Virus record (IMG/VR): IMGVR_UViG_3300025018_003790
Length of the DNA stretch: 64,000 bases
Reading direction: 5' to 3' (one strand)
From: a virus
Taxonomy: Duplodnaviria; Heunggongvirae; Uroviricota; Caudoviricetes
Shown here: positions 3,718 through 62,872 of the stretch, one piece after another
Position numbering within the stretch: position 1 is the first letter of the stretch
How the letters are laid out: every line of letters begins with the position of its first letter
Notes under the pieces: model-generated
Database searches by the model: none
Seen by the model: only the letters and a program-made list of their open reading frames with translations
Told to the model about the DNA's origin: nothing
Program-made: the position numbers and the translations under genes

Positions 3718-3770
3718 TGGATTACCCGATCTTTGTGATTAATTCTATTCGCTCACAGATATCTTCGATT

Positions 3771-27568: not shown

Positions 27569-27610
27569 GCTGACATACTCCCTCCGCTAAAGCAGGAAGG
27601 CTTTCTAGCC

Positions 27611-28720
27611 GTGTTCTTTGTAAATTATACCTTGTTGTGTCAACCAAAAATTTATGTTTTGCAGGGAATAAAATTTTTTGTTAGAATTAATACTTTGATC
27701 CTTTGGAGGTTTTTCAAAATGGAATTTAATAAAAAAGTAGATAGGGCTTTGTCTGATTTAACAAAATCTTCACAATGGTGTGATGATCATTTTAATGAAG
27801 GATGGGGAAATCTTGCAAATTGTTTTGATGATACTATTTTGCTTTTATCTGCATTTTCATCTAAAGATAAAAAATTAATTAAATTAAATCAACAAAGAAT
27901 TAAAATGGGAAAAATATCTGGTCTCCCTCAAATATCTCTTGATGCCATCTTGGAGAGTGGGGGTAGGAAAATTCTAGAGAATATTGTCCCCCTCGGCGAG
28001 AGGTTCTTGCAGCATCAAACTGGCGGTGGGGACCACATGAAAGACGAGAGGAAAGAAGTTCCAGGTTGGAGAGACAAAGCAGGAAGAGCTTTAGATTATG
28101 GGACTACATTTTCAAGGAACCCAGGTTTTTTGAATATGGTCGGCGCTGGTCTAGGGGAATATCTAAAAGGTGGTGATTTAAAGGGAGTTGCAGAAAAAGC
28201 TGGATTGGCAAATCTTCCATACGAAGTTAGAATCGGTCTTGAGACATTTGAGGGATTAATTCCATTGGTTGAGGAGGTTGCCCCTGTTCTTAATCAGTTC
28301 ACAAATTATAATGTCTCAGAAATTATTAACAAAATGAAATCTATAATCCCACAAGTAGCTGCTGCTATCGGTTGGGGTTTGTTACTCAGGAAAATCATGG
28401 GGCTTGGTGGGGGAGATCAAATAGACGAAAAGAATAAAGATCATAAAATAATAGATGATTCAGTCCCAGAAGCTCCAAAACCCCAAGAATCGGGAGAACC
28501 AACCAGGGTCATGCCATCAAATTCTTCAGACGGTTTTGCTAATGATGTTTCTGATTTTGGTTTAGGATCAGAAAAACAATTGGGATTGAGAAGAGAATCT
28601 TCAAAAAAATCATCAAATCCATTAGTTTATGTTGCAATAAAAAAGAAAAACTCAAATGGGACCATTAAAAAAGAACTTGGGATTTTGCCATACTCACTTG
28701 CTAAATTGATGAATGATTAA
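27611..28720 (+). CDS. hypothetical protein
   Basis: ORF track, 369 aa; its stop abuts the stop of the convergent gene 28721..29506. Confidence 0.45.
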   Translation: MFFVNYTLLCQPKIYVLQGIKFFVRINTLILWRFFKMEFNKKVDRALSDLTKSSQWCDDHFNEGWGNLANCFDDTILLLSAFSSKDKKLIKLNQQRIKMGKISGLPQISLDAILESGGRKILENIVPLGERFLQHQTGGGDHMKDERKEVPGWRDKAGRALDYGTTFSRNPGFLNMVGAGLGEYLKGGDLKGVAEKAGLANLPYEVRIGLETFEGLIPLVEEVAPVLNQFTNYNVSEIINKMKSIIPQVAAAIGWGLLLRKIMGLGGGDQIDEKNKDHKIIDDSVPEAPKPQESGEPTRVMPSNSSDGFANDVSDFGLGSEKQLGLRRESSKKSSNPLVYVAIKKKNSNGTIKKELGILPYSLAKLMND

Positions 28721-30076: not shown

Positions 30077-32020
30077 TCAGATAGTTTTTAGTCTTTCTAG
30101 TTCATCAAGTTTTAAGAAATAGAACCCGAAAACAGTAGGATACTGCAAGGTTCTTTCTGTGTCAAGATCAATATCTTCCAAATGAGTTCCCTGTGGTTTT
30201 TGAACCCACTTATGAATGTTGCCAAAGAATCTAATAAAAAATTTTTTCACCCAATCAACGATTTGGTTGTGTAAATAATCTTCAAATTTTTCAAAGAGGA
30301 TCAATGCTATTTCATATGGTGATTTCCCATGAGTTACCAATAATTCATAACAAGAGTCTAAAACTTCAAATGGCATTAATTCTCTTTCATCTTCTTGGTT
30401 TTCTGCAAGTTCCGCAGAAGCAACAGTTTTGTAGATCAATCTAGCAAGAACAATCGCAAGTTGTGCGCTCTGTTCGTCGTTTTGATTTGCAAGTGCTTTT
30501 AGATAAAAATACTCCAAAATTTTGTTAATCTTTGTTTTTCGGCAACCAGAGATTGGGGCAAAATCTCCTTGCATATCACCAAGTTTTGTCGCATACCCAA
30601 CGGCTGTTTCCGACATATTGCTTGTGCAGAGCACAAGCCCTCGACAAATATTTGAAAGATTGGCAATTTTTGTTGCACGGATTCTCGCTTGTATATTTTG
30701 ATCTGCAATTCTGTAATCCGCCTCTCCAAAACCAAGCCCTTCATTCAATTTACGCAAATCTACTGATTCTCTTTGAAACGGTTCAGCAATTGATTGTTCG
30801 TAAAAATTAAGACCAAGTGTTTCACATAAATCCTTTGAAATATTTCTGGTAGCATCAGAGTTATAAGATGTTGGGAAAGAGACACAGGTAACAACATCGT
30901 GAGGATTCAAATTATTTCTGATTGCCCATTCATAAGCTAAAATTGCAACCAAGACAGAATCTCGGCCACCAGAAATAGAGATTAACATCCTATCAAAAGT
31001 ACCAACTTTTCTGAAATAATCACCCATTCCCATAATAATTGCATTAATTATTTCTTCGATTTCATCAAAAACTACAACTTTTTCTTGTTTTTTAATTCTT
31101 GATCGATCAATGTTTATTCCCTGTGGAATTTTGACTGTATAAATAGAAGGAATTAACTTTTCTCTTTCAATAAAATCTTCTGCTTGACTTTTCCAGGTTG
31201 TATCTCTTGCCCTTGATGCCCAGACTTCATCAAAATCAACATCTTGGATAACAATTCCTGGTTGGAATCGTTCCAATTCAGCTAAACATTCACCCTCTTG
31301 AATAATATAGCCACCACCATCAAATGAAAGTTCTCCGTTCCCACCAACTTGATATGCTGCTAGAAGAATCGAATGATCATCAATTGATCTTTGTCTCAAC
31401 ATCATTTTTCGATTGTTTTCGACTCCTGATCTAAAAGGCGATGCGTTCAAAATAGCATGAACAACTGCGCCTTCATAACCATGGTGCCTCATTGGCCCAT
31501 CTGGCACCCAAGAGGTTTCACAAATTTCACAAGAAAAAATGAAGGAACCATTAATTTCAAAAAGGAGATCGCCAAAATCTGGATTCTCTAAACCAAAACC
31601 AATTTTTGTTAAATCAAATTGTTTGCCTTCTGTGGTTGTTCTTTTTTCATAAAAAATACCATAGTTCGGAAGATGTTGTTTGGGGGTGATACCGACAACT
31701 TTACCTTTATGAATCACAAAAGCACAATTAAAAATTCCACGACTCGGGATCGGCAGGAATCCACCAATCACAAAAATTGTATCTAGATACATTGTAGCTT
31801 CACAAAATCTATAAATTTCTTCTATTTCTCGGTGAAAGAAAAATGGCAACAAAAGAAAATCGCTACAAGGATAACCTGTTACACAACCTTCTGCATAAAC
31901 CAATAGATTACAACCAAGATCATTTGCATGAGAAGCATAAGGAAGCATTAAATCTACATTGTTCTTAAAATCACCAACTTTAGGATTCATGGAGACAACA
32001 CCGAGACGTGCTTTTGACAT
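30077..32020 (-). CDS. nadE: glutamine-dependent NAD+ synthetase
   Basis: N-terminal CN-hydrolase (nitrilase) domain, C-terminal NAD synthetase domain with PP-loop ISISGGRDSVLVAI (SGGxDS); 647 aa. Confidence 0.8.
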   Translation of the reverse strand: MSKARLGVVSMNPKVGDFKNNVDLMLPYASHANDLGCNLLVYAEGCVTGYPCSDFLLLPFFFHREIEEIYRFCEATMYLDTIFVIGGFLPIPSRGIFNCAFVIHKGKVVGITPKQHLPNYGIFYEKRTTTEGKQFDLTKIGFGLENPDFGDLLFEINGSFIFSCEICETSWVPDGPMRHHGYEGAVVHAILNASPFRSGVENNRKMMLRQRSIDDHSILLAAYQVGGNGELSFDGGGYIIQEGECLAELERFQPGIVIQDVDFDEVWASRARDTTWKSQAEDFIEREKLIPSIYTVKIPQGINIDRSRIKKQEKVVVFDEIEEIINAIIMGMGDYFRKVGTFDRMLISISGGRDSVLVAILAYEWAIRNNLNPHDVVTCVSFPTSYNSDATRNISKDLCETLGLNFYEQSIAEPFQRESVDLRKLNEGLGFGEADYRIADQNIQARIRATKIANLSNICRGLVLCTSNMSETAVGYATKLGDMQGDFAPISGCRKTKINKILEYFYLKALANQNDEQSAQLAIVLARLIYKTVASAELAENQEDERELMPFEVLDSCYELLVTHGKSPYEIALILFEKFEDYLHNQIVDWVKKFFIRFFGNIHKWVQKPQGTHLEDIDLDTERTLQYPTVFGFYFLKLDELERLKTI

Positions 32021-32051: not shown

Positions 32052-32696
32052 TTAGATTAACAATTCATCAAAAAGTTCTGTATCGAGATTAGTTAAGCAA
32101 TTGACTTCAAATTTTGAAAGTTGTTTGCCGTTGATCCACCAACTTTTATTGCCATCAGCTAATTCAATAGCAGGCCCATCAAGGCGGTGAAGCTGGCCAT
32201 TTTGCAACCAAGATTTTGAACCATTGGCAAATTCAATTGCTGGGCCATCAAGGCGATGAAGTTTGCCGTTGAGCCACCATTCTTTTGTTCCGTCAAACCT
32301 TTCAATAGCTGGCCCATCAAGGCGATGAGATTTGCCATTCAATCTCCATTCTTTTGATCCGTCGGCATTTTCAATTGCTGGCCCATCAAGGCGGTGAGGC
32401 TGGCCATTTTGCCACCATTCTTTTGATCCATCGGCAAATTCCTTTGCTGGCCCATCAAGACGATGAGGTTTGCCGTTGATGAACCATTCTTTTACCCCAT
32501 TGGGCCAATCAACAGCAGGCCCATTAAGGCGATGAAGTTTGCCGTTGATGTACCAATGTTCTACTCCCTCGGGTGTTTGATATGCTGGCCCATCTTCTCG
32601 GTGAAGTTGGCCATTTAAAGTCCAAGTTTTTACGCCATTATTCTCGATCCTTAATTTTGGATTTTTTTTCATAGTTAACCTCAATTCATCAATCAA
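32052..32696 (-). CDS. MORN-repeat (variant) protein
   Basis: About eight tandem units of the WxNGKxHRLDGPAxE..DGSKEW form. Confidence 0.7.
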   Translation of the reverse strand: MIDELRLTMKKNPKLRIENNGVKTWTLNGQLHREDGPAYQTPEGVEHWYINGKLHRLNGPAVDWPNGVKEWFINGKPHRLDGPAKEFADGSKEWWQNGQPHRLDGPAIENADGSKEWRLNGKSHRLDGPAIERFDGTKEWWLNGKLHRLDGPAIEFANGSKSWLQNGQLHRLDGPAIELADGNKSWWINGKQLSKFEVNCLTNLDTELFDELLI

Positions 32697-33952
32697 TAAA
32701 TAGTTTCTTCAAAGAATTCGGTTGAATTATCCCAAACACGTTGATACCTTTCGACTTCACTCTTGGGGCCTTGTGCTTTCGCAAGATTGTTGCTAATTTT
32801 AACTGTTGAAACAGGTTCGTTGATCATCAAAGAACTTATCACTTCAACTGCTTTAACAATAATTGACAAAGGATCCGCACCAAGATCATTCGAGCAATTT
32901 GTACCAATCCCGAATTTAACACCAATCCTTCCACTGAAAGCTTCAAATAGTTTTTTAGCAAGTGGGGGATTTAATCCATCACTGAAAAAGATGACTTTTT
33001 TGAGTGGGTCAATACCTTGCGATTGATAGAAAGAAATAACCCTTTTACCGAACTTGAAGGGGTCGCCAGAATCATGCCTAATCCCTTTGTAAAAACCAGA
33101 AAGAAATCCAGCAAAATCAGCAAAAAATGCATCATCACCAAATGTATCCCCCAAAGCTATTGATAATGGTTTCCCATAAAAAAGTTTCCAATTTCTAAGG
33201 ACAAATCTTTGTGATTTCCTCAAAGATTCATCCCCACCAATTGCCCCCATTATTGCAGCTATAACCATATACAATTCGTGGGCTTGAGTCCCGCCTGGAA
33301 TTTGTACGTGTTTCATAGCTAAATTAATATTTGATGTCCCTAAACAAGAAGGACAATTCTCAACAAAATCCTCATAACATTCTTCTTGCCATTCAGGACT
33401 AAAAGCCCGCCTTGTCCCAAATTCTACCCACTCAAAACCAGGAATAGAATTGAATAATTCAATTTTTTCTTTTCTGCGGCGGCGGCCTTCTTTTTTAAGT
33501 TCTTCCATTTGATTTGGATATTTATACCGATAATAAAGAGCATTGATTATTGACATAATAAAGGTCTCTGAATAACTGGATCTAGCCCAATAATCTTGAG
33601 AGTCGATCAAAAATTGTCCATCCCGAATGTCAACATTGATTTTAGGCATTTGATAATTTTTTAAGAATTCAAAATAATCAGAAAAATCTTCTTTCTTATA
33701 CCCAACCCTGAATGAATCAGCAATGAATCCAATTTCGTTTGCAGAAAACCTTAATGATCTGCAATGATCTAATTCTTCTCTAACTGCTTCAATTGGAATA
33801 ACTTCAGCTAATTTATTGTCTTTTTTTCTATTGTTGAAAGCAAATCTAACAATAGGGTCTGGGAATCTTTCTTCAATGAAAGCCTGCATGGCAATTTTAT
33901 ACCAATCTGTATGCAAAAGAGTTTTGATAATTGGTTCTGGGTTTGTTAGCAT
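32693..33952 (-). CDS. pncB: nicotinate phosphoribosyltransferase-like enzyme (NAPRTase/NAMPT superfamily)
   Basis: N-terminal LLHTDWYKIAMQ matches the PncB signature LLDTDAYKLHMQ; real start probably the internal ATG at 33950-33952, preceded by GAGGAGGAAAG SD. Confidence 0.65.
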   Translation of the reverse strand: MLTNPEPIIKTLLHTDWYKIAMQAFIEERFPDPIVRFAFNNRKKDNKLAEVIPIEAVREELDHCRSLRFSANEIGFIADSFRVGYKKEDFSDYFEFLKNYQMPKINVDIRDGQFLIDSQDYWARSSYSETFIMSIINALYYRYKYPNQMEELKKEGRRRRKEKIELFNSIPGFEWVEFGTRRAFSPEWQEECYEDFVENCPSCLGTSNINLAMKHVQIPGGTQAHELYMVIAAIMGAIGGDESLRKSQRFVLRNWKLFYGKPLSIALGDTFGDDAFFADFAGFLSGFYKGIRHDSGDPFKFGKRVISFYQSQGIDPLKKVIFFSDGLNPPLAKKLFEAFSGRIGVKFGIGTNCSNDLGADPLSIIVKAVEVISSLMINEPVSTVKISNNLAKAQGPKSEVERYQRVWDNSTEFFEETIY

Positions 33953-33990
33953 CTCTGCTTTCCTCCTCGCCCTCTTCCCCGTTTGTAGCA

Positions 33991-34025
33991 AAGCCCTGCG
34001 GCGCTGTGAGAGCGCCGCAGGGCTT
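33991..34025 (-). promoter_or_regulatory. 15-bp perfect GC-rich hairpin between the vWA and pncB genes
   Basis: AAGCCCTGCGGCGCT-gtgag-AGCGCCGCAGGGCTT; no U-tract, so not a canonical terminator. Confidence 0.5.
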
Positions 34026-43718: not shown

Positions 43719-44144
43719 TCAATACAGACTTAGAACACCAGTTATTTCGTCGATGTCCTCTGATTTGTTTGGGCCAATTCCAACTGCTGTGTTAGTAGGA
43801 ATCCCCTTGAATTCAGTTAAACCTGCATCTGTGATTAATTCACAGGTTAATCCTGCTTCTTTTGCTCTGTTGAAAATATATAAAAGTTCTTCTTCACTTC
43901 CAACTTGCAGACAGACTTTTGTGAATTTCCCATTAATCCAAATAATTTCTTCTTCTGTTAATTCAATTGTTACTTGGTTTGATGAGGGTTTCAATTCTTT
44001 TCTGATTTTGTTTGTCAAAAAAGCTTGTGCGGCATGGCTACCTTGTGCAATTTCTTTCCCTCTTCGAACTTTTAAATCTTTCCTCATAATTATTACCTGC
44101 TTCACATTCATCATCCCCACCTCCATTCTAGTGTGTTTAGCCAT
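43719..44144 (-). CDS. pth2: peptidyl-tRNA hydrolase, PTH2 family
   Basis: KQVIIMRKDLKVRRGKEIAQGSHAAQAF matches the PTH2 N-terminal core (K/R-G-K-hAAQ-SHA). Confidence 0.75.
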   Translation of the reverse strand: MAKHTRMEVGMMNVKQVIIMRKDLKVRRGKEIAQGSHAAQAFLTNKIRKELKPSSNQVTIELTEEEIIWINGKFTKVCLQVGSEEELLYIFNRAKEAGLTCELITDAGLTEFKGIPTNTAVGIGPNKSEDIDEITGVLSLY

Positions 44145-44939: not shown

Positions 44940-45680
44940 ATGCCTAATATTGACAAAAATTTTATTGTGGAAATTCTTAAATATGCAGAAAAATATGAGA
45001 AAGATGGGAATGTAATATTTTCTGACATACTTGATTCTGTAGCTGAAACTCTAGCAACTATTTCTAATCCATCAAAAATTAAACGTTTTTCACAAACTGA
45101 CCAACAAGTAATTCCTAATCAAAAACTTGAAATATCAGAACCAATTTCTTTTAATGGAAGAGAGAATTCTGATTTTGATCAAGCTTTTAATCTTCTAGAA
45201 AAAGCAATAGAAATAGTTCTTCCATATAAAGGCATTCCACAACTTCAACAACCTATTGCTAATTTGTTCAATTCTGTTCAAATGATGGGATGGGCTATTG
45301 GTGGGAATCCTTTAATGAAACAAGATTCAAAATGGGCTCAAGAAATGATTGCAGCGGGACGTGGCCCAGAAGTTTTCCAATTTATCAGTCAATTAGATAA
45401 CCCCGACGAACAAACAAGGAATGAAATTGTTGAAAACGGATATATCCCTGGGAAAAGTCTTTCAGATATTATTGATGATACTACCCAACAAAATGTCCCC
45501 GAAAAAGAAAAACCATTAGCACCAAAAGAAGCAGAGAATAAAACTATTAAAAAACTTGCAGAAGCGAACCCAAAATTTGAAGATCTTGATGGTAAAACAA
45601 AAGTAGCATTTATTTCAAATTATGGTTTAATGATTTTAAACAAAAATCTGTATCTGAAACTACAAGATTTTTGCAACTAG
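44940..45680 (+). CDS. hypothetical protein (plus strand)
   Basis: ORF track, 246 aa, divergent from the upstream minus-strand genes. Confidence 0.45.
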   Translation: MPNIDKNFIVEILKYAEKYEKDGNVIFSDILDSVAETLATISNPSKIKRFSQTDQQVIPNQKLEISEPISFNGRENSDFDQAFNLLEKAIEIVLPYKGIPQLQQPIANLFNSVQMMGWAIGGNPLMKQDSKWAQEMIAAGRGPEVFQFISQLDNPDEQTRNEIVENGYIPGKSLSDIIDDTTQQNVPEKEKPLAPKEAENKTIKKLAEANPKFEDLDGKTKVAFISNYGLMILNKNLYLKLQDFCN

Positions 45681-45746
45681 ATTGGAAAGCAACACACAGG
45701 CAAAATTGCTTTGCCTGTGTGTTGCTTTCCAATTCTTTTCAGTCTC

Positions 45747-46658
45747 TTATTTTTCTGCTTTTTTCGACTTGCTGCTGGTTTCTTCTGCGGCCGGAAGATT
45801 GAGAATCATCCCGTTCCCAGAGCCAACGACCAAGGGTTGTGCCCCATCCCAAGCATCAATCGTAAGATACTTCAAAAGACTTGGAGTCAAAGATTCGTTG
45901 ATAATTCTATTCGATTCTGCTTGTGCTCGGGCGATTTCCAGCTTCGATTCGGCCTCGCCCTTTGCTTTCGCAATTGCCTGATCAGCTTGTGCCTTAATCT
46001 CCTTGACCTTTTGCTCCGCTTTACTGGCCTCCTGGCTGGCTTCGATCACAGCGTTGATCGAGTTTACAACCCTTTCGTCAGGCCGAGGAGCGGTCATAAA
46101 GCTAACGTTGTTGAAAATAAATCCACTTGGGCCAAGTTCCGATTCCAAATATTCCTTAACTTCATCAAGCAATGCACCCTTCTTTTCACCGAAAATTTCA
46201 ATCGCTGAATACTTCGAGGCACAACGATTGAATCCATCCCTGACTCTGTCACGGACAGTGTTGTCAGAAAGTTCTTCAATCGTCGTCCAACGATATTTGC
46301 TGTAAATATCAGGGGCTTTTGCCGGATCAATTTGATATTCAATACTCACATCAGCATTGAAATTTGCACCTTCGCTGGACGAAAAATCGAAAGAATCATC
46401 GTTCTTGCTACCCTCTGTGGGGTTTTTCGTCCATTTCTCTGATTGACGATAAATTGGGAAAACAATAATTTCTGTTGTGGGCATGAAATAGAAATGGTAT
46501 CCAACGCCCAACGGAGTCGGGTGGACGCCAGCAGAGCTACCTGTTTTTTTGACTTCAACCCCGACATGTTGCGGTGGGACCTTCGCACACCCCGAAGCAA
46601 AAATTGACACAAAAATCATAATCGAAACTGCCACTGCGGTTCTTTTGGAGAACATCAT
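45747..46658 (-). CDS. SPFH/Band-7 (prohibitin-like) lipoprotein
   Basis: Lipobox IFASGC after a signal helix; SPFH core followed by an Ala/Glu/Lys-rich coiled coil (EASKAEQKVKEIKAQADQAIAKAKGEAESKLEIARAQAE). Confidence 0.7.
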   Translation of the reverse strand: MMFSKRTAVAVSIMIFVSIFASGCAKVPPQHVGVEVKKTGSSAGVHPTPLGVGYHFYFMPTTEIIVFPIYRQSEKWTKNPTEGSKNDDSFDFSSSEGANFNADVSIEYQIDPAKAPDIYSKYRWTTIEELSDNTVRDRVRDGFNRCASKYSAIEIFGEKKGALLDEVKEYLESELGPSGFIFNNVSFMTAPRPDERVVNSINAVIEASQEASKAEQKVKEIKAQADQAIAKAKGEAESKLEIARAQAESNRIINESLTPSLLKYLTIDAWDGAQPLVVGSGNGMILNLPAAEETSSKSKKAEK

Positions 46659-47640: not shown

Positions 47641-48831
47641 CTAAGCATTTGACAATGCTCCAAATATCCGCAAACTCACTGGTTTGAAACCGGCACCGTA
47701 AGGTCCGGTGAAAAATCGATTCAAAATATTCCTCCCTGCATTTGTATCTGCGTTGCCTTTATGACCACAACCAAGGCACAGGAATATCTCTCCATTCCGA
47801 TTCTTCTTATCAGCATGACCACATTCAGGGCAAGTGATACTGGTATTATAACACGGAACGGTTCGGAAGGAAACACGGTTTTCTTCACACCCCATTTGAA
47901 CCCGGTTCAACCAATATCGCCACACCCACGAGCCAATAACTCGACGCATATTTTTGGAAAGGCGTCGTCTTTCCTTTGTCTTGTGATTCAAATTGCTAAG
48001 CTTCTCCACAACCACAAGATCAATCTTTTCATTAGAAACTATTTGCTTCGCAACCTCATCCATTTGTTGCTTCAATGCCCTTCTGGCTCGCTTTTGTCCT
48101 TTAGAACCATGTTGGCAACGATTGATGCGATTAACGCAACCTTTTATATCTCTGCCCAACTGCTCGCCGTTGGAAAAAGAAGCTAAAGCATTGATACCAG
48201 AATCAATCCCTATGGCATTTTTGCCTTGCTTCTTTTCACCAGTTTCAATTTCAAAGCAAAATTGAACAGAATCTTTTGTTATGATATAGGAATTAAGTCT
48301 TTTTCCCAAGTTGTCCCATTTATTGAAATGCTTATGGAAACGAATTGGCAGGTTCATCACGATCTTATTTCCTATTGAAGCTAGATGAAGCCAAGCATCG
48401 AATTCATTAGTTTTAGACATTTGAAGATCAGCAATAGTGCAACTGACATTCATTCTATTGCCTTTGTGCTTTGGCTTCACGGCTATCAATGACTCTGCTT
48501 TCTGTCTCAATTGGTTCGCCTTTGTTGCGCTTTTAGCTTTTTCTGCTTTGGCAAGAAGCCTCTTCTTTTCGTTGTTGGTTTTTTCTTGGGAAGCCTTGAT
48601 CATGTCAATTGCTTCTCTGGCACAAACCTTTCTAAGTCTAGCTGAAAGCCAAGAATCAGGAGCGTTCACGATGTCTTTTAACAATTCTGCTTTGGTTGGG
48701 CATTGCTCCCAGAAGGAATCGATGAACAGGTTGCAAACTCTTCCGTATTCGGTCAACACAGCACCAAGCTCCAGCCTCTTTGCGGAGGTTGAAAACTTGA
48801 GGCTGCACTGTGCTGACCGAATAATTTTCAT
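47641..48831 (-). CDS. tnpB: TnpB (OrfB) RNA-guided endonuclease
   Basis: Same RuvC-I/II/III and zinc-finger motifs as 19709..20899. Confidence 0.85.
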   Translation of the reverse strand: MKIIRSAQCSLKFSTSAKRLELGAVLTEYGRVCNLFIDSFWEQCPTKAELLKDIVNAPDSWLSARLRKVCAREAIDMIKASQEKTNNEKKRLLAKAEKAKSATKANQLRQKAESLIAVKPKHKGNRMNVSCTIADLQMSKTNEFDAWLHLASIGNKIVMNLPIRFHKHFNKWDNLGKRLNSYIITKDSVQFCFEIETGEKKQGKNAIGIDSGINALASFSNGEQLGRDIKGCVNRINRCQHGSKGQKRARRALKQQMDEVAKQIVSNEKIDLVVVEKLSNLNHKTKERRRLSKNMRRVIGSWVWRYWLNRVQMGCEENRVSFRTVPCYNTSITCPECGHADKKNRNGEIFLCLGCGHKGNADTNAGRNILNRFFTGPYGAGFKPVSLRIFGALSNA

Positions 48832-49132: not shown

Positions 49133-50650
49133 TTACAGGTACATAACAGTTTTCTTGAGCTTGCCTAGTTCAATAACATTCTCTATAGGTTCGAACCAAA
49201 AATACTTTCCCTCCCAATCCGGCTGCCTTTGAATAAGTGAATTCCAACTATCAATGTGATTTGAATTTGGGCCGTCACAAAAAGTAAGTCTTTCTTTTCC
49301 AGCGAAGGCGCTTTCTCTCGGATTCCTATCCAATAGGGCCTTTGCCCTATCAATCCCCTTTTCACCAGATACCGTATTCGTAGCAACGCTCTTCTTTATT
49401 ATTTCCTCTGGAATATCCTCATACTTATCAAACACAATCATCTTGTATTGTCTTTTAATTTTGCTTTGAGAATTCCATCTCCCACCAGGGATTATGGTGA
49501 ATTCTCCATCAAAGAATCCGATGATATTATCCACCAATTTAGTGCTTGAGATATAAATCGGGAACACGTCGTCTTGTTTCCTGTGTCCTGATTTACAAGG
49601 AAAGCCTAAATATCTACCGATGGACTGATATAAAGAATCATCGGTTTTATAAGCATCAATATGCATACGAATATGCATAGTCTCATTTAGTGTCTTTCCT
49701 GCTCTCATTGCGCCTTTGATTATAATAATAGAAGGCTTTTTGGGTTGCTCTGATAAAGCACCATCTAACTGACTAATTTCGTAATCTCCATCAATAGAGT
49801 ATTCCCTAAACCAAATATTGGGATAGTTTTGCCCCAAATATCTTTCTATAACGAAGGGGGCTTGCCCCTGTGTCCTAATCACAAGATGACCGTTTCCATT
49901 CTTGTTGCAAAGACCAATGAATTCGTCTAGTCTTTCTTTAAAGAATGGAGTGACACAAGACTTCCTATCATCGGCCACTTTTGTTTCATGAACGACTACA
50001 AATCTCCCATCATTCTTTGCGTCTTCGATTGAATAATAATTATCACTCAATTCCAATTGGATACAAGAAAATGAATTCTCTCTTATTTTTGACTGAAGGA
50101 CAGATGCAAATGGGGTAGCTGACAGAGAAAGAACATAGTTATGACCATTATTCCAATCAGAAATAGGCATACCATATTCTATGCCCAATTTATCAAACAG
50201 CACATTAAGTGGACGACTATTGCCTAGAGCCTGATGGCATTCGTCAAGGAAGATTAGCCTTCTATCTACCGTTAGATCTATTTTATCGGGGATCGCATAT
50301 TCTGCCCCGCTTTTCTTAGTAAAATCTGCGAGATGGAAAACTTTAACCCGACAAGAAGCATTAGGCTCGTAGATACCAGCGTTCTGTAACCTTCGTTGCT
50401 GTTGTATTTTGAGTTCATTATCGGAAATATGAAGGATAAACAATATTTCGTAAGTTAGTCCTTCTTTCTCCCATTCATCTTTCATCATTTTAGCGACAAA
50501 GGTAGCCACTCCAGTTTTCCCCTGTTGGGTTTGAGCAATTAGCAATGGCGGGCCTTCATGCTTGGCAAATTCTTCTATAACCTCTTCTCCTGCTTTAATT
50601 TGTTCATAGTAAATAACTTCATCTCCAATTTTCATTTCAGATAGGCTCAT
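49133..50650 (-). CDS. SF2 helicase-like ATPase (DExH type)
   Basis: Motif I AQTQQGKTGVA, motif II FLDECHQAL, motif III SATP, motif VI-like QSIGRYLG; start overlaps the tnpA stop by 14 nt. Confidence 0.55.
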   Translation of the reverse strand: MSLSEMKIGDEVIYYEQIKAGEEVIEEFAKHEGPPLLIAQTQQGKTGVATFVAKMMKDEWEKEGLTYEILFILHISDNELKIQQQRRLQNAGIYEPNASCRVKVFHLADFTKKSGAEYAIPDKIDLTVDRRLIFLDECHQALGNSRPLNVLFDKLGIEYGMPISDWNNGHNYVLSLSATPFASVLQSKIRENSFSCIQLELSDNYYSIEDAKNDGRFVVVHETKVADDRKSCVTPFFKERLDEFIGLCNKNGNGHLVIRTQGQAPFVIERYLGQNYPNIWFREYSIDGDYEISQLDGALSEQPKKPSIIIIKGAMRAGKTLNETMHIRMHIDAYKTDDSLYQSIGRYLGFPCKSGHRKQDDVFPIYISSTKLVDNIIGFFDGEFTIIPGGRWNSQSKIKRQYKMIVFDKYEDIPEEIIKKSVATNTVSGEKGIDRAKALLDRNPRESAFAGKERLTFCDGPNSNHIDSWNSLIQRQPDWEGKYFWFEPIENVIELGKLKKTVMYL

Positions 50651-51287
50651 TGTTTTCTTCCTTTTCTTTTTCAGCTTTACGCTTTTTCCTATTATCAGCA
50701 GACCGTTTTCCGTAAATTTTATTTGAAAAAGATGCCATCAGCGAAAGAATGTCTTCCACTAACTCTTCTTCATAACTCTTTCCAAGTATTTCTTCAACCC
50801 ATTCAATCTCGACACCGTGGCTTCGGAAGAATTTCACAAGAAACTCAAACATAAATCGGCACAACCGATCACGATGTTCAATGATAACCTTGTCAATCTC
50901 ACCTTCTTCAGCCAGTTTGAGAAGCCGGTTCAATTTTGGGCGATCATCCGACATTCCAGAAGCAACCTCTTCAAAAGTTGCCACGACGAAATATTTTTTA
51001 TCAACACAATATTTTGACAATCTTCCCGATTGTCTCCCTAAGTCGCCTTTTGTTTTTTGTTCTTGCGATGATACTCTAGCATATACCGCTACTCTGATAG
51101 TATCTCTAGTTTTCTCTGCCTCTTCGCCAATAAAAGCCTGAATATCTGATATTTTGTATCGCCTGTGACCACCGGGGGTTTTCATCGGGACAAGAGTTCC
51201 TGACTTGTCCCATTGGCGCAAGGTATCTATATTGACTCCAAGGATTTGTGAGGCTTCTCCTATGCTAACTAACTTCTGTTGCGCCAT
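50637..51287 (-). CDS. tnpA: IS607-type TnpA serine recombinase with N-terminal MerR-like HTH
   Basis: HTH LVSIGEASQILGVNIDTLRQWDKSG; resolvase catalytic block IRVAVYARVSSQEQ...GDLGRQ; 216 aa. Confidence 0.8.
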   Translation of the reverse strand: MAQQKLVSIGEASQILGVNIDTLRQWDKSGTLVPMKTPGGHRRYKISDIQAFIGEEAEKTRDTIRVAVYARVSSQEQKTKGDLGRQSGRLSKYCVDKKYFVVATFEEVASGMSDDRPKLNRLLKLAEEGEIDKVIIEHRDRLCRFMFEFLVKFFRSHGVEIEWVEEILGKSYEEELVEDILSLMASFSNKIYGKRSADNRKKRKAEKEKEENNEPI

Positions 51288-51613
51288 CTATAAGTTCTTT
51301 CTCCTTGAAGGTGTAATACCATTGATCATAGATTCTTTGGAATTCTTCAATCTCAGGAAGTTCATCTTCGGCAAATGGCAACGGATGCGGAAAGACCGAT
51401 CCGTTATCAAGTTCGAATTCAGTTGTTGTAAGTCTAACAACAGTATGCTTTGTAATCATTTTGTCCATACCTTCCTATTCGCAGTTTTCTAACAGATTCC
51501 TGCATATTTTTAAGATTTCCTGAGATTTATTTTGAGGACAGATTTTGCAATGCTCGTTAGAGCATCTTATTTACCCATATATCCATAGATTTCCGCAGAT
51601 TTAGTGCCAACTG

Positions 51614-51877
51614 TTATCTACCCTTTTGGAGCGCAATCAAAGATCCTGCTATTTCTTCATAAACAACACCCAATCTTGTGTTTCCTAAAAGAAACTTTTG
51701 GGATAAAACCATAGCCATATGTTTATCGTCGATATTAAGACCTTTTGCTTTAAGTAATTCTTGGAATTTTACCCTAATTTGATACAAATCATGCCTATTT
51801 TCAGATAAAAACTTCAAAACATCTTTCACCCCCTGGCCCTCTTCCTCTGACATGGCTCTAGACCTTCCTGAAATCAA
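51614..51877 (-). CDS. hypothetical protein (stop codon supplied by the IS left-end sequence)
   Basis: ORF track; TAA at 51614-51616 lies inside the conserved IS terminal block. Confidence 0.4.
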   Translation of the reverse strand: MISGRSRAMSEEEGQGVKDVLKFLSENRHDLYQIRVKFQELLKAKGLNIDDKHMAMVLSQKFLLGNTRLGVVYEEIAGSLIALQKGR

Positions 51878-52288
51878 TTCACAATTGAAATTTCAGAATT
51901 CGAGTACCCAGACCAAAAAGATCTAGATTGAAGAGTTTGAATAGCCCTTGCTGAAAGTAAAGAAATGATCAAGATCAAAATTACCTTTTTCATTTCTTTT
52001 TCTCCGATTCAATCTTTTCTTTCAATGAACCTAATGCCAATGGGATTGTGCCTCTTTTTTCAGAGTTAAAATCTACACCAAAAATAGTATGTTTGAAAGC
52101 TTCAAAACTATCACCATCTTTAGTGATTTCAATTAAATATCCTTCGGATCTTGTTGGTCTGCAAATAAAAGAGTTTCCATCATCTGATGACGAAACATTA
52201 AATTCTTCACCTAAAAACCCCCTGACTAATTCACTGATCTGTTCACATTGTCCCATGTCTTAACTCCTTTTGTGGTTTTTTCGAAACA

Positions 52289-52362
52289 TAGCCAAGGAGA
52301 GACTCGAACTCTCAATAACACGGTTCTTGGCCATGCTCCTCTACCAATTGGGATACTTGGCC
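52289..52362 (-). tRNA. tRNA-like gene, anticodon loop CCAAGAA (nominal anticodon AAG, Leu) with C33; possibly aberrant
   Basis: 74 nt: acceptor GGCCAAG/CTTGGCT (G1-U72), D-arm with GG, anticodon stem CATGG/CCGTG, short variable loop, T-arm GAGAG-TTCGAGT-CTCTC, discriminator A, no encoded CCA. Confidence 0.5.
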
Positions 52363-52370
52363 ATCAGACA

Positions 52371-52889
52371 TTATTCAACTATCCTTAAAAAGTAAATCAC
52401 ATGCATCTCATCAAAATTTTCACTTTTGAAACCAATCACTTCAAAACCATCATCAACAACATTTTGAATTGCTTCTTGTAATGAAAAATCTGAATATCTA
52501 AAAGTCTTTGTTGCAACTTCTTTTTTGATTCCAGCTAATTTTTCGAATTCTTTAACCGTTTTGAAAATTAGACCCATTCGTTTTTTCAAATTTTTAAACA
52601 ATTCTTCAGGGTCTCTTTTCGGTGGATAGGTTTTGATGGGCGGCAATGTTTCACAACAAAGACAAGCAATGTATCCACTCCATTCTTCGTGACTCTCCCA
52701 TTCATCGGAAACAACAATCGCAAAATCTTTCTTTTCTGCGGGTTGAAATTCAACCCTAAATCTTCCAGAACTTTCCAAAAAACTCTCAACAAAATCTTTT
52801 GGCTTAACTACAACCCAAGAATAACCTGGGAAAACTTTGGAAATAGCAGCTAAAAGTTCTTCTATCGCTTTCTCCTTTAGCGACATCAT
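52371..52889 (-). CDS. hypothetical protein
   Basis: ORF track, 172 aa. Confidence 0.45.
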   Translation of the reverse strand: MMSLKEKAIEELLAAISKVFPGYSWVVVKPKDFVESFLESSGRFRVEFQPAEKKDFAIVVSDEWESHEEWSGYIACLCCETLPPIKTYPPKRDPEELFKNLKKRMGLIFKTVKEFEKLAGIKKEVATKTFRYSDFSLQEAIQNVVDDGFEVIGFKSENFDEMHVIYFLRIVE

Positions 52890-53455: not shown

Positions 53456-53860
53456 TCAGTCCTTTCTCTCAATCCCAAGAAGTTTTAGATCTTCTGGGGA
53501 CAAACCTGCAAGCAATTTCTTTTTTTTGAAATCATCTAAAGAATAACTTGTTTGCGCCAAAATTGATTGAGAAATTTCAGGTGGGGTTATATCTGCTTCC
53601 CAATCCATAATCTCTTTCCCTGCGAACCAAGCTTTTCTCCAAACACCACCATATTCACTCAGACCATCAAGAACAATAACCACACCAGGAAGTTTTTCTG
53701 AAACCTTCGCAATATTCTCATAATCCCATGATTTTGTGTTCCCAACTCCGGGGCAATCTGTCATTTTGAAAAACAATTCCTCAACTTCTTTTGTTGCTTC
53801 TGTCGGGACAACAGTTAAGGTGTGCTTAGTGTAATCGCCCACGGGTTTTCTCCTGCTCAT
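53456..53860 (-). CDS. hypothetical protein; start codon overlaps tRNA-Glu discriminator base
   Basis: The ATG is formed by the tRNA discriminator A plus TG. The longer ORF-track version (TTG at 54067) is the reverse complement of tRNA-Glu and a GC-rich leader, so it is rejected. Confidence 0.45.
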   Translation of the reverse strand: MSRRKPVGDYTKHTLTVVPTEATKEVEELFFKMTDCPGVGNTKSWDYENIAKVSEKLPGVVIVLDGLSEYGGVWRKAWFAGKEIMDWEADITPPEISQSILAQTSYSLDDFKKKKLLAGLSPEDLKLLGIERKD

Positions 53861-53931
53861 AGCCCTGGGGGGAATTGAACCCCTCGTTTTAGCCTTGAAA
53901 GGGCTGCGTTCTACCATTGAACTACAGGGCC
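53860..53931 (-). tRNA. tRNA-Glu(TTC)
   Basis: 72 nt: acceptor GGCCCTG/CAGGGCT (G1-U72), D-arm GTTC-AATGGTA-GAAC, anticodon loop CTTTCAA, T-arm GGGG-TTCAATT-CCCC, discriminator A; coordinates anchored to the ORF track (+/-1). Confidence 0.8.
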
Positions 53932-54763: not shown

Positions 54764-55639
54764 TCAAGTGTTCACAATCTCGAACCAAAACTGTTCTCTA
54801 TCAAGGTCAGCGAGAACGAAATTGTTTTCATTTTCGTTGGGAATTGATGTAAATCCGTTTTTCATTCTGGTTGGTGTTGCTTTGACCCAAACGCCAAACT
54901 CAGGGTAAAGCGAAAGAACAGCAGATAATGGATCGTGAAATGCTTTTTGGTCTCTTTGATCTAGATAAATTGACATTCCTTCCCGAATCAATTCTCCCCC
55001 TATACTTTTTGTATTTGAGGCTAAAACTCGTTCATGAATTTGTTTGTTGTAAACAACTGTATGACAAATATTCTTCCCTACAAATCTTCTTTCAGAGAAA
55101 TTGGATAGCAACAACATTTCAAGTCCAGAGGGGCACCCCATCATGTTGAAGGTTGGGAAAAACTCATGCCCCTCAAATTTTTCTAATCTTTGTTTTGGAG
55201 AAAACTTTGAGTAGGGCAGAAATCCACCCTGCATCAAAAGCTTCCCAAGTTGATGTGTTTGATTGAGGGCTATTTCACCAGAAGCAATAGCCGGACCAAT
55301 GACGAACCAATTATCTTCTTCAGAAATTTCTATTTTATCTTCGTCAGCTTCCAACTCAAAAGGAGCATTATGTCTGGTCAAAACTTTCTGATGAAAACCA
55401 TGGGAATAATCTTTTCGATCACTTGATTTCCCTGGTTTGCTTGAAAAGATTGGGAAGTCTTGTTCAAACTTGTCCCTCAAAAATTTAGCAATGGCTATTT
55501 GTGTTGAGTATCCCGGCGTGATAAACCAAGCTTTGAATTTAATCCCCTTTGATTGAAGATAGCACAAAGCAAAAAAATCATCTGGGTCTCCACCAAGATC
55601 AGTCTCAATTATCATTTTTAATCCTTCGACCATTGCCAT
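54764..55639 (-). CDS. nucleoside hydrolase (IU-NH family)-like protein
   Basis: N-terminal IIETDLGGDPDDFFAL matches the DxDxxxDD Ca-binding signature of inosine-uridine nucleoside hydrolases. Confidence 0.5.
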   Translation of the reverse strand: MAMVEGLKMIIETDLGGDPDDFFALCYLQSKGIKFKAWFITPGYSTQIAIAKFLRDKFEQDFPIFSSKPGKSSDRKDYSHGFHQKVLTRHNAPFELEADEDKIEISEEDNWFVIGPAIASGEIALNQTHQLGKLLMQGGFLPYSKFSPKQRLEKFEGHEFFPTFNMMGCPSGLEMLLLSNFSERRFVGKNICHTVVYNKQIHERVLASNTKSIGGELIREGMSIYLDQRDQKAFHDPLSAVLSLYPEFGVWVKATPTRMKNGFTSIPNENENNFVLADLDREQFWFEIVNT

Positions 55640-57729: not shown

Positions 57730-57802
57730 AGCCGGTGATTGGGGTTGAACCAACGACCTGCGGGTTACAAATCCGCTGCTCTACCAACTGAGCTACACCG
57801 GC
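57730..57802 (-). tRNA. tRNA-Thr(TGT)
   Basis: 73 nt: acceptor GCCGGTG/CACCGGC, D-arm GCTC-AGTTGGTA-GAGC, anticodon loop TTTGTAA, T-arm GTTGG-TTCAACC-CCAAT, discriminator T. Confidence 0.8.
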
Positions 57803-58402
57803 ATTTTCGACACACTTTCATTTTTTCTAAACTAAATCCTACAATTATCTGAAATCTAAAAAATCAAACAAAGATAAAATTTCATCTTTTCTATAAAACT
57901 TTTCTGCCGAACTAACAATATCTTGAATTATTTTATCCCCAAACCTTGGATAACTAGGTCTAATTTCTTCCGCATCCCAAAATAAATCTGTGCTTAAAGA
58001 AATCATTAAATAAACAACTTGTTCGTCTCTCTCATCAAAGCAAATGTTCAAATGAATCTCACTGTTTAGTTTTGAAATCAAAACATTATTTTTTCTATTC
58101 CAAATAAGTTCTGACATTTTTTTATTTTCAAAATTTTTAAGATTGATCAATTTTCATGCCCAACTCAAACCTGGGCCATCATGCAAAGAGTTATACAAAT
58201 TGTCAATTAACAGTTCCCACTCCGCCCCACTATAACCGCAATGTGTATGCAAATTTCCAATCCTTATCGTCAAACTATTACCGCCAAGATCTTCTTCAAT
58301 TGAAACAATCGCACCATTTTCGTTAATTATCTCAACAATCTTTTTGAGGCACTCTTCGCATTTCTCTGCGGTTGTCATTGCTTCCTCACTTTTAAATCAA
58401 AA

Positions 58403-58486
58403 CGGTAGACCTGGGACTCGAACCCAGAAGGGCTATTAACCCCACCGCTTTTCAAGAGCGGCCCCTGATCCAGCCGGTTGCCTACC
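58403..58486 (-). tRNA. tRNA-Ser(TGA), type II
   Basis: 84 nt: acceptor GGTAGGC/GTCTACC, anticodon arm CCGCT-CTTGAAA-AGCGG, long variable arm, T-arm CTGGG-TTCGAGT-CCCAG, discriminator G. Confidence 0.85.
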
Positions 58487-58607
58487 AAGAACAGACCAAT
58501 CAATCTTTAATTTTTCTCTTTGTCGTCCCTCTCATTTAGCAATCTAACAAGAGCCTGTGCTGCTTTTTTCCCGCCAAAGGTTTTGCCCTCCATGTTTTAC
58601 TCCTCTT

Positions 58608-60562: not shown

Positions 60563-60963
60563 TCTCCGGCCCCTTTTCAGCTTGGCATACCATTAACAAT
60601 TTGCCAAGGTTCAACGCCAACAGATTCAATGTATTTGCATCTTTTCCAAATTTCTTCGACATTTGCCGCAGCCAACGACAATTCGTCTTTATGGAAATAA
60701 AAAACGACAGGATCACCGCCTCCGCAACTTTGACCGTGCATATCTCTATTAAATTCCATAAATACCTTATCTAGAAGGTCTTGCGCCTCAACTTCCATTT
60801 CGTCTGTCATCCAATCATATTCGTATGGACTGAAAATTAAGACTTTTAATTTCCAATAGATATCATCATGATTTTCAAAAGGATTAACAAGAGATTGTGG
60901 CTCAGAAAGTTCTTCATTGCTCATTCCATCTCTCCTTCATTGGTTTTTTTTCGAACCTAACAA

Positions 60964-61035
60964 TACCCCCGGCAGGAATCGAACCTGCATTAATGGCTTA
61001 GAAGGCCACTGCTCTATCCATTGAGCTACGGAGGC
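60964..61035 (-). tRNA. tRNA-Arg(TCT)
   Basis: 72 nt: acceptor GCCTCCG/CGGGGGT (two G-U pairs), D-arm GCTC-AATGGATA-GAGC, anticodon arm GTGGC-CTTCTAA-GCCAT, T-arm GCAGG-TTCGATT-CCTGC, discriminator A. Confidence 0.85.
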
Positions 61036-61081
61036 AAACTACGAACCGTCAGTCTAGCCAACCATTCAATTATACTTCAAT

Positions 61082-61615
61082 TCATTCTTTAACTGCTGTT
61101 TTCTTTTCGTTCATTTTGGTCTCAACAATTTTCGGGACATAATTTGAAACATCAAGGTTCAAATCGAACAATTGTTTAACCATTGAAGAACTGAGATGAC
61201 TCAAGTCCTGGTCTCCAGTCAAAAATACTGTTTGAACTCCAGATATTTCTTGATTGATCTTTGCTATTTCAATTTCAAACAAAAAATCAGTTACACTTCG
61301 GAGGCCCCGCACGATTGAGACGTTGGCGTTCCCAAGCCTTTCCATTATTTCTTTTGCTGTGACTGCTGTTGATCCTTCATAACAAACAACACTCCACATC
61401 CCGTCAAAATCATCAAGTGTTTCTTTTAGAGCTTGATTGACAAGTTCTTCTCGTTCTTTGATATCAAAAAATTCACTTCCTACCTTTGCCGGGTTGATGC
61501 CAATCCCAACAATCACATGATTAAAGACATTTGTTGCTTCTTTGATCACAGAGATATGGCCGAATGTAATTGGATCAAAGCTTCCTGGGTAAAAACCTGC
61601 CGAAATTTTATTCAT
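61082..61615 (-). CDS. cytidylyltransferase-fold nucleotidyltransferase (PPAT/NadD-like)
   Basis: AGFYPGSFDPITFGHISVI = (T/H)xGH motif in the PPAT/NaMN-adenylyltransferase context. The start is probably the ATG at 61613-61615 (AAGGGA SD), because the upstream 44 codons of the ORF-track call lie in a GC-rich leader. Confidence 0.6.
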   Translation of the reverse strand: MNKISAGFYPGSFDPITFGHISVIKEATNVFNHVIVGIGINPAKVGSEFFDIKEREELVNQALKETLDDFDGMWSVVCYEGSTAVTAKEIMERLGNANVSIVRGLRSVTDFLFEIEIAKINQEISGVQTVFLTGDQDLSHLSSSMVKQLFDLNLDVSNYVPKIVETKMNEKKTAVKE

Positions 61616-61760
61616 AATCCCTTGATCGCTTTCTTCCGGCGGCCCGGCGCTTCCTGGCCGCCTCCTGCTTCGTGCCACCATGATACCCCGAAGCACCGCT
61701 CTTAGCAATACGCCAGAGGCTTTCTTCGACGGCCCGCCTTTGGGCAACAGCGTCGGGCAT
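61616..61760 (-). promoter_or_regulatory. GC-rich leader with TATCATGGTGGCAC element
   Basis: Shares TAT(A/C)ATGGTG(C/G)CAC and downstream GGCCAG(A/G)A composition with the 6165-6275 leader. Confidence 0.4.
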
Positions 61761-62872
61761 ATCGGTGGACTCGATTCTATTTGTTTTTTTCTCCCTTTTC
61801 ATTTTCTTCCTCTATCCATCCAAATCCAGACTGACATACTCCCTCCGCTAAAGCAGGAGGGCTTTCTAGCCGTGTTCTTTATAATGAGCGATGACATCAT
61901 TAAAAAAGTTCCAAACAAAGGGAACTATTTCCTTTTTTCCCCATAACTTCTTCATGTGTCAACCACAAAAGTTCCGAACATTTATCAGGTTCTTTAATTT
62001 CATGTATTCCACTCCAAATTGCTGTTTCCCAAAAAAGGTCCAGATATTCGCCTTTATCGCCCATCCGATGGCAAACATGGCAAAGATTCATATTTTCAGT
62101 TTAAACACCAACACCAACTTTCAGTCTGAAACGCTCGTCGCCCGTGTCGCTCATATCACTCATTCTACACCCCTAAACTTAAAACAAAAATCAAAAATCT
62201 TTGCAGTTTATTCATTTTCTTTTCTCCCTAAAATTGGGCTTGTTGCTCCAAAAAATAAACATTAAGTTCTTGATAATCTACTAAATCATCACCATATTGC
62301 TCGTTATATTCATAGATATAAAATCCAAGAATTTGTTTTCCTTGATCAACAAGTTGTTGAAGGATTTCTTCGATTATAAACGGTTGTTTAAAAACTTCAC
62401 ATTTGACCATAATTTACTCCTGTTCTTCAAATTCTCCGATGTCCTCCGGTTCCAACCCATTCATCCATTCCTGATAAAATAGTCCTCTGACAGTATACTC
62501 TTCAATTTGAAGCCCTCGCCGTCTGGTTCTTTGGAAACGTTCTTTATCTGTTTCTTTAGCCATTAATTCTGCTTCTGCTTTGACTAAAGGAATTATTCCA
62601 CAGGAAGAGATTGAACAATATCTACCAAGACAATAAAGTTCAAGTTCTGGTAGAATTTTTTTGAATTGAGTCCAATCAACCGGCAATTCTGGTAAATTCA
62701 ACCCATCTGTTTTACCTGTTGCAGCAAACCATTTAATCAAGCTGATCCCAACAATTTCATCTTCTTCATCATCTCTAAAGATTCACAACTGAGGTTCAAA
62801 AAAACAATCTTCATAAAAGGTTCCTGGTTGAATTTCAGGTCTTATATGCGCTTCAGATATTGAATTCCCCTT

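Follow-up and report, generated by a model that had tools for sequence, protein, structure and literature searches.

The hallmark of bacterial tRNA-Leu as a class is the long variable arm of type II tRNAs. A natural tRNA-Leu of type I, with a variable loop of 5 nt, is known from Streptomyces coelicolor, where tRNA-Leu(CAA) is chromosomal and essential, has U33, and is leucylated by a bacterial leucyl-tRNA synthetase (LeuRS); the length of its loop matters and not the loop sequence, the discriminator base A73 is no identity element there, and the authors presented this tRNA as a rare case, with phages unmentioned (Fan et al., 2019, PMC6614811). Animal mitochondrial tRNA-Leu is also of type I and is recognised via A73 and A14 (PMC9976931), although it belongs to another compartment and no evolutionary link is implied. 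In Escherichia coli the leucine identity set comprises A73, A14, the A15-U48 pair, G18G19, A20a and the tertiary pairs that join the D loop to the T loop (PMC9976931; also PMC6614811); the variable arm is reported to be no identity element, and tRNA-Leu deprived of both the anticodon and the variable arms is still charged (PMC9976931). Here we describe a 74-nt tRNA-Leu(AAG) gene on the minus strand, at 52289-52362, of a 64,000-nt stretch of DNA from a virus of the class Caudoviricetes (IMG/VR record IMGVR_UViG_3300025018_003790; the whole stretch is hereafter called the window). Like the S. coelicolor tRNA it has a 5-nt variable loop, and unlike it, the gene is phage-borne and combines the anticodon AAG with C at position 33. 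It is a real, intact phage gene of a covarying, mostly phage-borne family of type I leucine tRNAs.

ARAGORN calls tRNA-Leu(aag) at 52288-52363, and the Rfam model RF00005 matches 52362-52289 over its full length (1-71), scoring 46.2 bits where the gathering score is 29 (E=1e-6). In the tRNA sense the RNA reads GGCCAAG UA UCC C AAUUGGUAG A GGA G CAUGG CCAAGAA CCGUG UUAUU GAGAG UUCGAGU CUCUC CUUGGCU A. The thermodynamic minimum free energy (MFE) fold is the cloverleaf with the same 7-nt anticodon loop; besides the four stems, all of the universal tertiary nucleotides are in place (U8, A14, G18G19, G53, U54U55C56, A58 and C61). A preceding sequence-only reading of this locus had listed the T arm, the GG of the D loop, the anticodon stem and loop, the short variable loop, G1-U72 and A73, and every one of these features is present; the strand was missing from it, though the letters it quoted were in the tRNA sense. 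The parts of the gene are the following.

52289..52362, minus strand: type I (short variable loop) tRNA-Leu(AAG) with no encoded CCA, supported by ARAGORN, Rfam, the MFE fold and the covarying family
52356..52362, minus strand: 5' strand of the acceptor stem, GGCCAAG, with G1·U72
52337..52353, minus strand: D arm in the leucine register (U10-A25, C11-G24, C12-G23, C13·A22), D loop AAUUGGUAG with A14, A15, G18G19 and A20a
52319..52335, minus strand: anticodon arm, stem CAUGG/CCGUG (5 bp, one U·G), loop C32-C33-A34-A35-G36-A37-A38
52329, minus strand: position 33, C and not U, the sole deviation at family columns conserved at 90% or more
52326..52328, minus strand: anticodon AAG (A34 A35 G36), a Watson-Crick match to CUU
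52314..52318, minus strand: variable loop UUAUU, 5 nt, whose U48 can form the A15-U48 Levitt pair
52297..52313, minus strand: T arm GAGAG UUCGAGU CUCUC with G53, U54, U55, C56, A58 and C61
52289..52296, minus strand: 3' strand of the acceptor stem, CUUGGCU, and discriminator A73 (52289), followed by the trailer UGUUUCG without CCA

Nine metagenome contigs, assembled independently of each other from ENA and JGI samples, have the 170-nt region around the gene at 100% identity, therefore the gene is not an assembly artefact, and since it is a member of a covarying tRNA family, the cloverleaf is far beyond chance. An alternative fold with a canonical U33 is ruled out, as the loop CCAAGAA has no U at all and no register gives one; the earlier remark that position 33 is C holds, the MFE structure giving the same loop, and C33 is genuinely rare. 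The plus-strand mirror image, a tRNA with the loop UUCUUGG (anticodon CUU), receives no ARAGORN or Rfam call, and its D and T arms would be non-canonical as judged by eye.

The extent of the family was assessed with a pattern that combines a type I tRNA, this leucine D loop, an NAG anticodon and a variable loop of 4-6 nt; the family itself is defined by a variable loop of 4-6 nt together with A73, a leucine anticodon and a D arm in the leucine register. In IMG/VR the pattern is matched by at least 120 viral contigs, with the anticodon loops CUUAGAA (105), CUAAGAA (8), CUCAGAA (6) and CUGAGAA (1) among the matches listed, while in 596 Gb of bacterial and archaeal genomes it finds only 84 loci, many of them within tRNA arrays. 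BLAST against GenBank phages revealed type I genes of 74-78 nt annotated plainly as tRNA-Leu in cultured phages: Leu-UAG (77 nt) and Leu-CAA (78 nt) in Escherichia phage wV8, three genes of 74-77 nt in Lactobacillus phage Bacchae, Leu-CAA (75 nt) in Rhodococcus phage Peregrin, whose 5' half is nearly identical to that of the window gene; Cronobacter phage CR3 is a further carrier. Further matches in Bacillus, Pseudomonas, Serratia and Mycobacterium phages are tRNA-Leu by annotation. The genes of wV8 (Felixounavirus), CR3, Bacchae and Peregrin resemble the window gene in the 5-nt variable loop, the D arm …CCCAAUUGG(U/C)AGAGG…, A73 and often G1·U72; they differ from it in that all of them have U33 and the anticodons UAG, CAA or UAA. 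CCA is encoded in wV8 and CR3 and, as in the window gene, not in Bacchae and Peregrin. tRNA-Ser keeps the long arm (87-93 nt) in wV8, Bacchae and CR3, and in the fetched phage arrays overall 97/99 Ser and 35/37 Tyr tRNAs are of type II, whereas those for Leu are mostly armless. Another viral contig (L005) has a type II tRNA-Leu(UAG) whose T arm and 3' acceptor strand are letter for letter those of the window gene. In the literature searched we found no paper discussing armless tRNA-Leu in phages.

When the window gene is aligned with 114 non-redundant family members (115 sequences), compensatory double changes are present at 21/21 predicted cloverleaf pairs, and the window sequence pairs at every one of them. 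The window gene has 0/20 broken pairs, two being G·U, against a family mean of 0.6 broken pairs; its core aligns free of indels, and position 33 is the only column conserved at 90% or more that it does not match. G1·U72 occurs in 34/115 members, and A73 and U48 in 97% each; A14, the A15-U48 pair, G18G19 and A20a are likewise carried by the family. The combination of a leucine anticodon with a short variable loop, G1-U72 and A73, on which the sequence-only reading had built its case for an aberrant gene, is thus what members of a large family of phage leucine tRNAs normally look like. At 46.2 bits, the Rfam score, although below those of the neighbouring tRNAs in the window (62-72 bits), is within the 44-59 bits of type I leucine tRNAs from cultured phages. 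A tRNA pseudogene would be marked by multiple broken pairs, lost conserved nucleotides or truncation; here a single base is atypical, and the suggestion of a pseudo-tRNA is disfavoured by the unbroken pairs, the intact conserved positions other than 33 and the score in the range of cultured phages.

As to the leucine identity, the arguments are as follows. The leucine register of the D arm (3 bp, N13 and A22) is found in 139/170 type I and 27/34 type II leucine tRNAs (166/204 in total) against 3/~1,320 non-leucine tRNAs of the same contigs; a looser D-loop sequence signature was discarded, for it matched generic type I D arms, and this register-aware test was used instead. The same tRNA body carries the anticodons UAG, CAG, GAG, AAG, CAA and UAA, that is, those of both leucine boxes, and no others, which is the pattern expected from a charging enzyme that ignores the anticodon, as LeuRS does. 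A73 had been pointed out earlier as a LeuRS identity element; this was on target and extends to the full E. coli-type set, every listed element of which the window gene possesses. The same elements, as well as the 3-bp D stem with the 13·A22 mismatch, are shared with canonical bacterial type II tRNA-Leu, and the D loop AAUUGGUAG matches that of E. coli tRNA-Leu(CAG), the D-arm register being that of E. coli tRNA-Leu. Unlike the canonical tRNAs, the window gene lacks the long arm, having 5 nt in its place, and has C33, A34 and A37; tRNAs reading CUN usually have G37.

The base at position 33 deserves separate consideration. No C33 occurs among the at least 120 IMG/VR family members listed, and a C33-specific scan of IMG/VR returned nothing; four exact matches to the anticodon arm in IMG/VR are due to chance, all of them being within GC-rich coding sequence (…MAKNR…). 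A metagenome scan for C33 gave eight loci (L135-L142), all true tRNAs on high-GC contigs, which comprise five or more different sequences and in which the loop is CCCAGAA or CCGAGAA; seven of them lie within arrays of 7-31 tRNAs and one (L140) beside a single other leucine tRNA. A genome scan revealed the loop CCGAGAA in two more arrays (L179, L213), its match at L212 being a chance, non-tRNA one. Finally, the very loop CCAAGAA is found in a type I tRNA-Leu with GC-rich stems that stands by itself at 6494-6568 (minus strand) of DASYBO010000165.1 (L163), a contig of a Pseudonocardiaceae metagenome-assembled genome (MAG); this unrelated actinobacterial setting is high in GC, and the genes around the tRNA are ordinary chromosomal ones (P450, MarR, FAA hydrolase, L,D-transpeptidase). 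In all, at least seven other sequence-distinct type I leucine tRNAs have C33 (L135-139, L136, L140, L141, L142, L179/L213 and L163), and C33 can be taken to have arisen or been kept in each of these, once with the same A34. In two scans allowing either pyrimidine, C33 was found only with a non-U wobble base (3/51 vs 0/153, Fisher p=0.015), a weak hint that the two are tied.

C33 is also present outside leucine tRNAs, in about 3% of the 1,536 unique ARAGORN tRNAs of the fetched loci (a biased sample of unvetted predictions), and is spread over many isotypes, with a notably high frequency in Ile-GAU (9/77, loop CCGAUAA) and further cases in Val (5/56), Ser (6/100), Gly (5/97) and Thr (4/101). 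This suggests that phage tRNAs in general may be less bound by the U33 rule; the literature searched contained no paper on C33 in such tRNAs. In another domain, C33 is found in eukaryotic cytoplasmic initiator tRNAs, which shows that a tRNA with C33 can work on ribosomes; no evolutionary link is implied, and the initiators bind the P site directly, while the window gene has the design of an elongator. Examples of C33 in arrays among loci L015-L142 are L061 5562-5635, L097 9566-9641 and L021 633-706. The arrays at L135, L137, L138, L141, L142, L179 and L213 hold 7-31 tRNAs per locus of up to 11 kb, with 2-4 leucine isoacceptors each, nearly all of type I length, and the contigs numbered L13x and L14x have 59-68% GC. 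The 75-nt 'tRNA-Ser(gga)' called in L141 could be a miscall or a further class II tRNA without its arm. In a second MAG of the Pseudonocardiaceae (L148), a type I Leu(UAG) also stands alone, here with U33.

We consider it fairly probable that the window gene produces a working armless leucine isoacceptor, which decodes CUU, is charged through identity elements independent of both the anticodon and the variable arm, and tolerates C33. The tRNA would be transcribed together with the flanking minus-strand genes, excised by RNase P and 3' processing, and supplied with CCA by the CCA-adding enzyme of the host. The host LeuRS should then leucylate it via the discriminator and the core formed by the D and T loops, reading neither the anticodon nor the variable arm. 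Pairing of A34 with U would decode CUU, and more of the CUN box could be read if A34 is deaminated to inosine. In this scheme C33 is a tolerated, recurrent loop variant, which could make the U-turn weaker, affect modification or render the tRNA less recognisable to nucleases directed at the loop. The unusual decoding role proposed by the sequence-only reading is conceivable only in a narrow sense, through what C33 and A34 at the wobble position may do.

Several points weigh against this explanation. A34 is an unusual wobble base for bacteria. U33 is near-universal, being present in 100% of the at least 120 IMG/VR members listed, and C33 could be a mild or a strong handicap here. The searches brought up no close relative of the phage: DNA of the 2-kb neighbourhood had no match among GenBank phages, the 172-aa open reading frame (ORF) upstream of the tRNA had no relatives in IMG/VR and, in a search of 5.8 billion proteins, matched nothing but itself, a tblastn comparison of every window ORF with the fetched loci gave scattered weak matches and no related phage, and the nearest family tRNA is identical at 59/74 positions. 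A 289-aa ORF is a homologue of nucleoside hydrolases with matches 41-49% identical, and three contexts of its homologues belong to other phages with no leucine tRNA nearby. The nine copies of the locus add no evolutionary information, as they are identical. Lastly, E. coli LeuRS failed to charge the type I tRNA-Leu of S. coelicolor (PMC6614811), and therefore the charging of armless leucine tRNAs is host-dependent. Coliphages nevertheless carry members of the family, and the E. coli determinants are all in the window gene.

The window is low in GC (31-42%), almost all of its ORFs are on the minus strand, and it has genes typical of large phages (NAD synthase, NAPRTase, nucleoside hydrolase, an NMNAT-like gene, DNA methylase, HNH endonuclease, two TnpB-like ORFs and an IS607-type serine recombinase). 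Its five tRNA genes, for Leu-AAG, Glu-UUC, Thr-UGU, Ser-UGA and Arg-UCU, are scattered along 9 kb of the minus strand, and CCA is encoded by 0/5 of them. In 44 long ORFs of the window (12,897 codons) CUU accounts for 258/457 CUN codons (56%) and is the commonest of them in the phage; the other four tRNAs are exact matches to the most used or near-joint most used codon of their boxes (GAA 81%, AGA 49%, ACA 42%, and UCA 32% with UCU at 33%). Since CUU dominates CUN and the other four tRNAs also match top codons, the anticodon AAG fits the logic of the set. The neighbouring features are as follows.

51990..52256, minus strand: downstream ORF, 88 aa, with a Shine-Dalgarno sequence and ATG after a 32-nt spacer from tRNA-Leu
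52371..52889, minus strand: upstream ORF, 172 aa, an ORFan, with its stop codon 8 nt before the 5' end of tRNA-Leu
53860-53931, minus strand: tRNA Glu-UUC
57730-57802, minus strand: tRNA Thr-UGU
58402-58487, minus strand: tRNA Ser-UGA, type II, called by ARAGORN
60963-61036, minus strand: tRNA Arg-UCU

The Ser(UGA) tRNA is not reported by the Rfam tRNA model at the gathering threshold. In the immediate flanks there is no promoter-like site between the 172-aa ORF and tRNA-Leu and no terminator-like site after tRNA-Leu, and the tRNA is likely to be co-transcribed with the flanking minus-strand genes and then processed.

Some other features of the window can be mentioned here. The same phage region as the tRNA cluster contains an ORF with a peptidyl-tRNA hydrolase domain of the PTH2 (archaeal/eukaryotic) type (~43719-44144, minus strand; also L006, 18746-19171), another translation-related accessory gene. 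A set of genes for NAD and nucleoside salvage, all on the minus strand, is scattered over 30077-32020, 32693-33991, 54764-55639 and 61082-61747 and comprises a glutamine-dependent NAD synthase, NAPRTase, the nucleoside hydrolase homologue (relatives of PF01156, 41-49% identity) and a CTP_transf_like (NMNAT-like) ORF. The two TnpB-like ORFs (with a Cas12f1-like TNB domain; 19709-20899 and 47641-48831, both minus strand) are 84% identical over 1,149 nt, and a 38-nt repeat, 97% identical, at 21044-21081 and 51580-51617 is probably one end of each unit of an IS607-like insertion sequence (IS); the second unit also has a MerR-HTH serine recombinase (50637-51287) and, as a passenger, a ResIII-like ORF of 505 aa (49133-50650). 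The tRNA-Leu gene is not part of this element, its end repeat being at 51580-51617 and the tRNA about 0.7 kb away. Direct repeats (offsets of ~70 and 207 nt, 76-78% identity) at 32136-32616 lie within the ORF 32052-32696 and point to a repeat-containing protein. A 54-nt direct repeat, 96% identical, has its copies 34 kb apart at 27570-27623 and 61831-61884, within or close to intergenic DNA, and may serve both places as a regulatory element; a 53-nt inverted repeat at 45681-45733 (91% self-complementary), between the convergent ORFs 44940-45680 (plus strand) and 45747-46658 (minus strand), resembles a bidirectional terminator. On an unrelated phage contig (L235; ENA ERZ21869602 ctg81118l; 2924-3787, 8267-8342, 10154-10540) we noted a tRNA with the CUA anticodon (amber suppressor-like), a fragment of a GluRS/GlnRS catalytic domain, an RNA ligase and a PcfJ-like protein; this may be a stop-codon-recoding phage.

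An explanation that refines the decoding one and overlaps with it is the evasion of defence, in which the missing arm, C33 or both were selected to make the phage tRNA-Leu invisible to tRNA-targeting effectors of the host, decoding thereby surviving an attack on host tRNA-Leu; we regard it as possible, though unlikely. One proposal is that phages protect their tRNAs from anticodon nucleases by changes in the anticodon loop (van den Berg et al., 2023, PMC10264068). Such tRNAs, with which the T5 tRNAs acting against PARIS and retron effectors can be grouped, resemble the window gene in that the loop departs from the norm outside the anticodon; the reported changes, however, are at positions such as 32, 37 and 38 and are defined relative to known host tRNAs and cleavage sites, whereas C33 is set here against the family norm only, and position 33 is not mentioned in that paper. 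The toxin MenT3, from an abortive-infection family, depends on the long variable loop of a class II tRNA, which is no longer modified once that loop is deleted, but it prefers Ser over Leu (PMC11541572). The armless state of most leucine tRNAs, while Ser and Tyr tRNAs keep the arm, is in keeping with a loss that takes place only if the synthetase allows it; in phage arrays C33 is met in one isotype after another, and the loop CCAAGAA has no uridine. On the other hand, no effector is known to target tRNA-Leu via the arm or U33; the gamma-toxin of Kluyveromyces lactis cleaves U33C substrates as well as the wild type (PMC2275089), so C33 need not confer resistance; a paper on bacterial Schlafen gives no evidence for type II-specific cleavage in bacteria; armless leucine tRNAs are also met in ordinary bacterial chromosomal contexts (L163); and the loss of the arm could be neutral or favoured by gene compaction. 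In its broadest form this idea would mean that phages have repeatedly remodelled tRNA-Leu as a counter-defence, dropping the arm and in some lineages changing U33 to C, so that the host LeuRS still charges the resulting orthogonal-looking tRNA while arm-reading transferases and nucleases and anticodon nucleases reading U33 or the loop miss it. We find this doubtful; if true, the window gene would be among the most extreme versions of such a counter-defence, being armless and without uridine in the anticodon loop.

It is improbable, in our opinion, that the gene has been recently disabled, that is, that a once-normal type I tRNA-Leu(AAG) has been crippled in decoding by the U33C change and is decaying. 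C33 at a near-invariant position, its absence from the IMG/VR members listed, the lowest Rfam score of the four window tRNAs detected by Rfam and the lack of relatives that would show C33 maintained could all be read in this way. Yet there is no second lesion, 20/20 pairs and all other conserved nucleotides being intact; the same C33 is present in the other sequence-distinct members described above, with the identical loop in L163; the sequence is fixed in nine assemblies from different samples; and the Rfam score is inside the family range.

Very improbable is a gene whose product is not charged with leucine, or not charged at all: a host LeuRS requiring the long arm would leave the tRNA uncharged or mischarged, with CUU recoded or the RNA inert. 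The failure of E. coli LeuRS with the S. coelicolor tRNA-Leu(CAA) (PMC6614811) would permit this, but the tRNA body is tied exclusively to six leucine anticodons of two codon boxes, as is to be expected with an anticodon-independent LeuRS, all of the E. coli-type determinants are present, Felixounavirus coliphages themselves carry such tRNAs, and AAG should give no identity handle to any anticodon-reading synthetase. A tRNA-like RNA without a role in translation (a nuclease decoy, a regulatory RNA or a source of tRNA fragments) has a practically negligible probability: the decoy and regulatory roles proposed by the sequence-only reading gained no positive evidence, and apart from that proposal only the oddity of C33 and an IS607-like element about 0.7 kb away speak for such an RNA, against full conformity to the design of an aminoacylatable tRNA, including A73 and the elbow nucleotides, an anticodon matching codon demand, a surrounding cluster of ordinary tRNAs and an IS repeat boundary (51580-51617) that excludes the tRNA.

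Phage tRNAs, type I tRNA-Leu (in S. coelicolor and animal mitochondria) and anticodon-loop variants of phage tRNAs are already known, and in this sense the window gene is not categorically new. What appears to be under-described in the literature searched is the spread of armless tRNA-Leu in phages, the recurrence of C33 and the occurrence of the loop with C33 and A34 in two unrelated lineages. Annotation pipelines may flag such genes as aberrant or as pseudogenes, though they are probably functional. Armless tRNA-Leu is a common gene of phages, coliphages among them, and the LeuRS of the coliphage host is reported to be unable to charge the type I tRNA of Streptomyces; this raises a question about the recognition of tRNA by LeuRS. 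The C33 variants are natural experiments on the dispensability of the U-turn uridine in elongator tRNAs, and the armless phage tRNA-Leu offers a natural test of why phages carry tRNAs, whether for codon supply or for the evasion of tRNA-targeting immunity.

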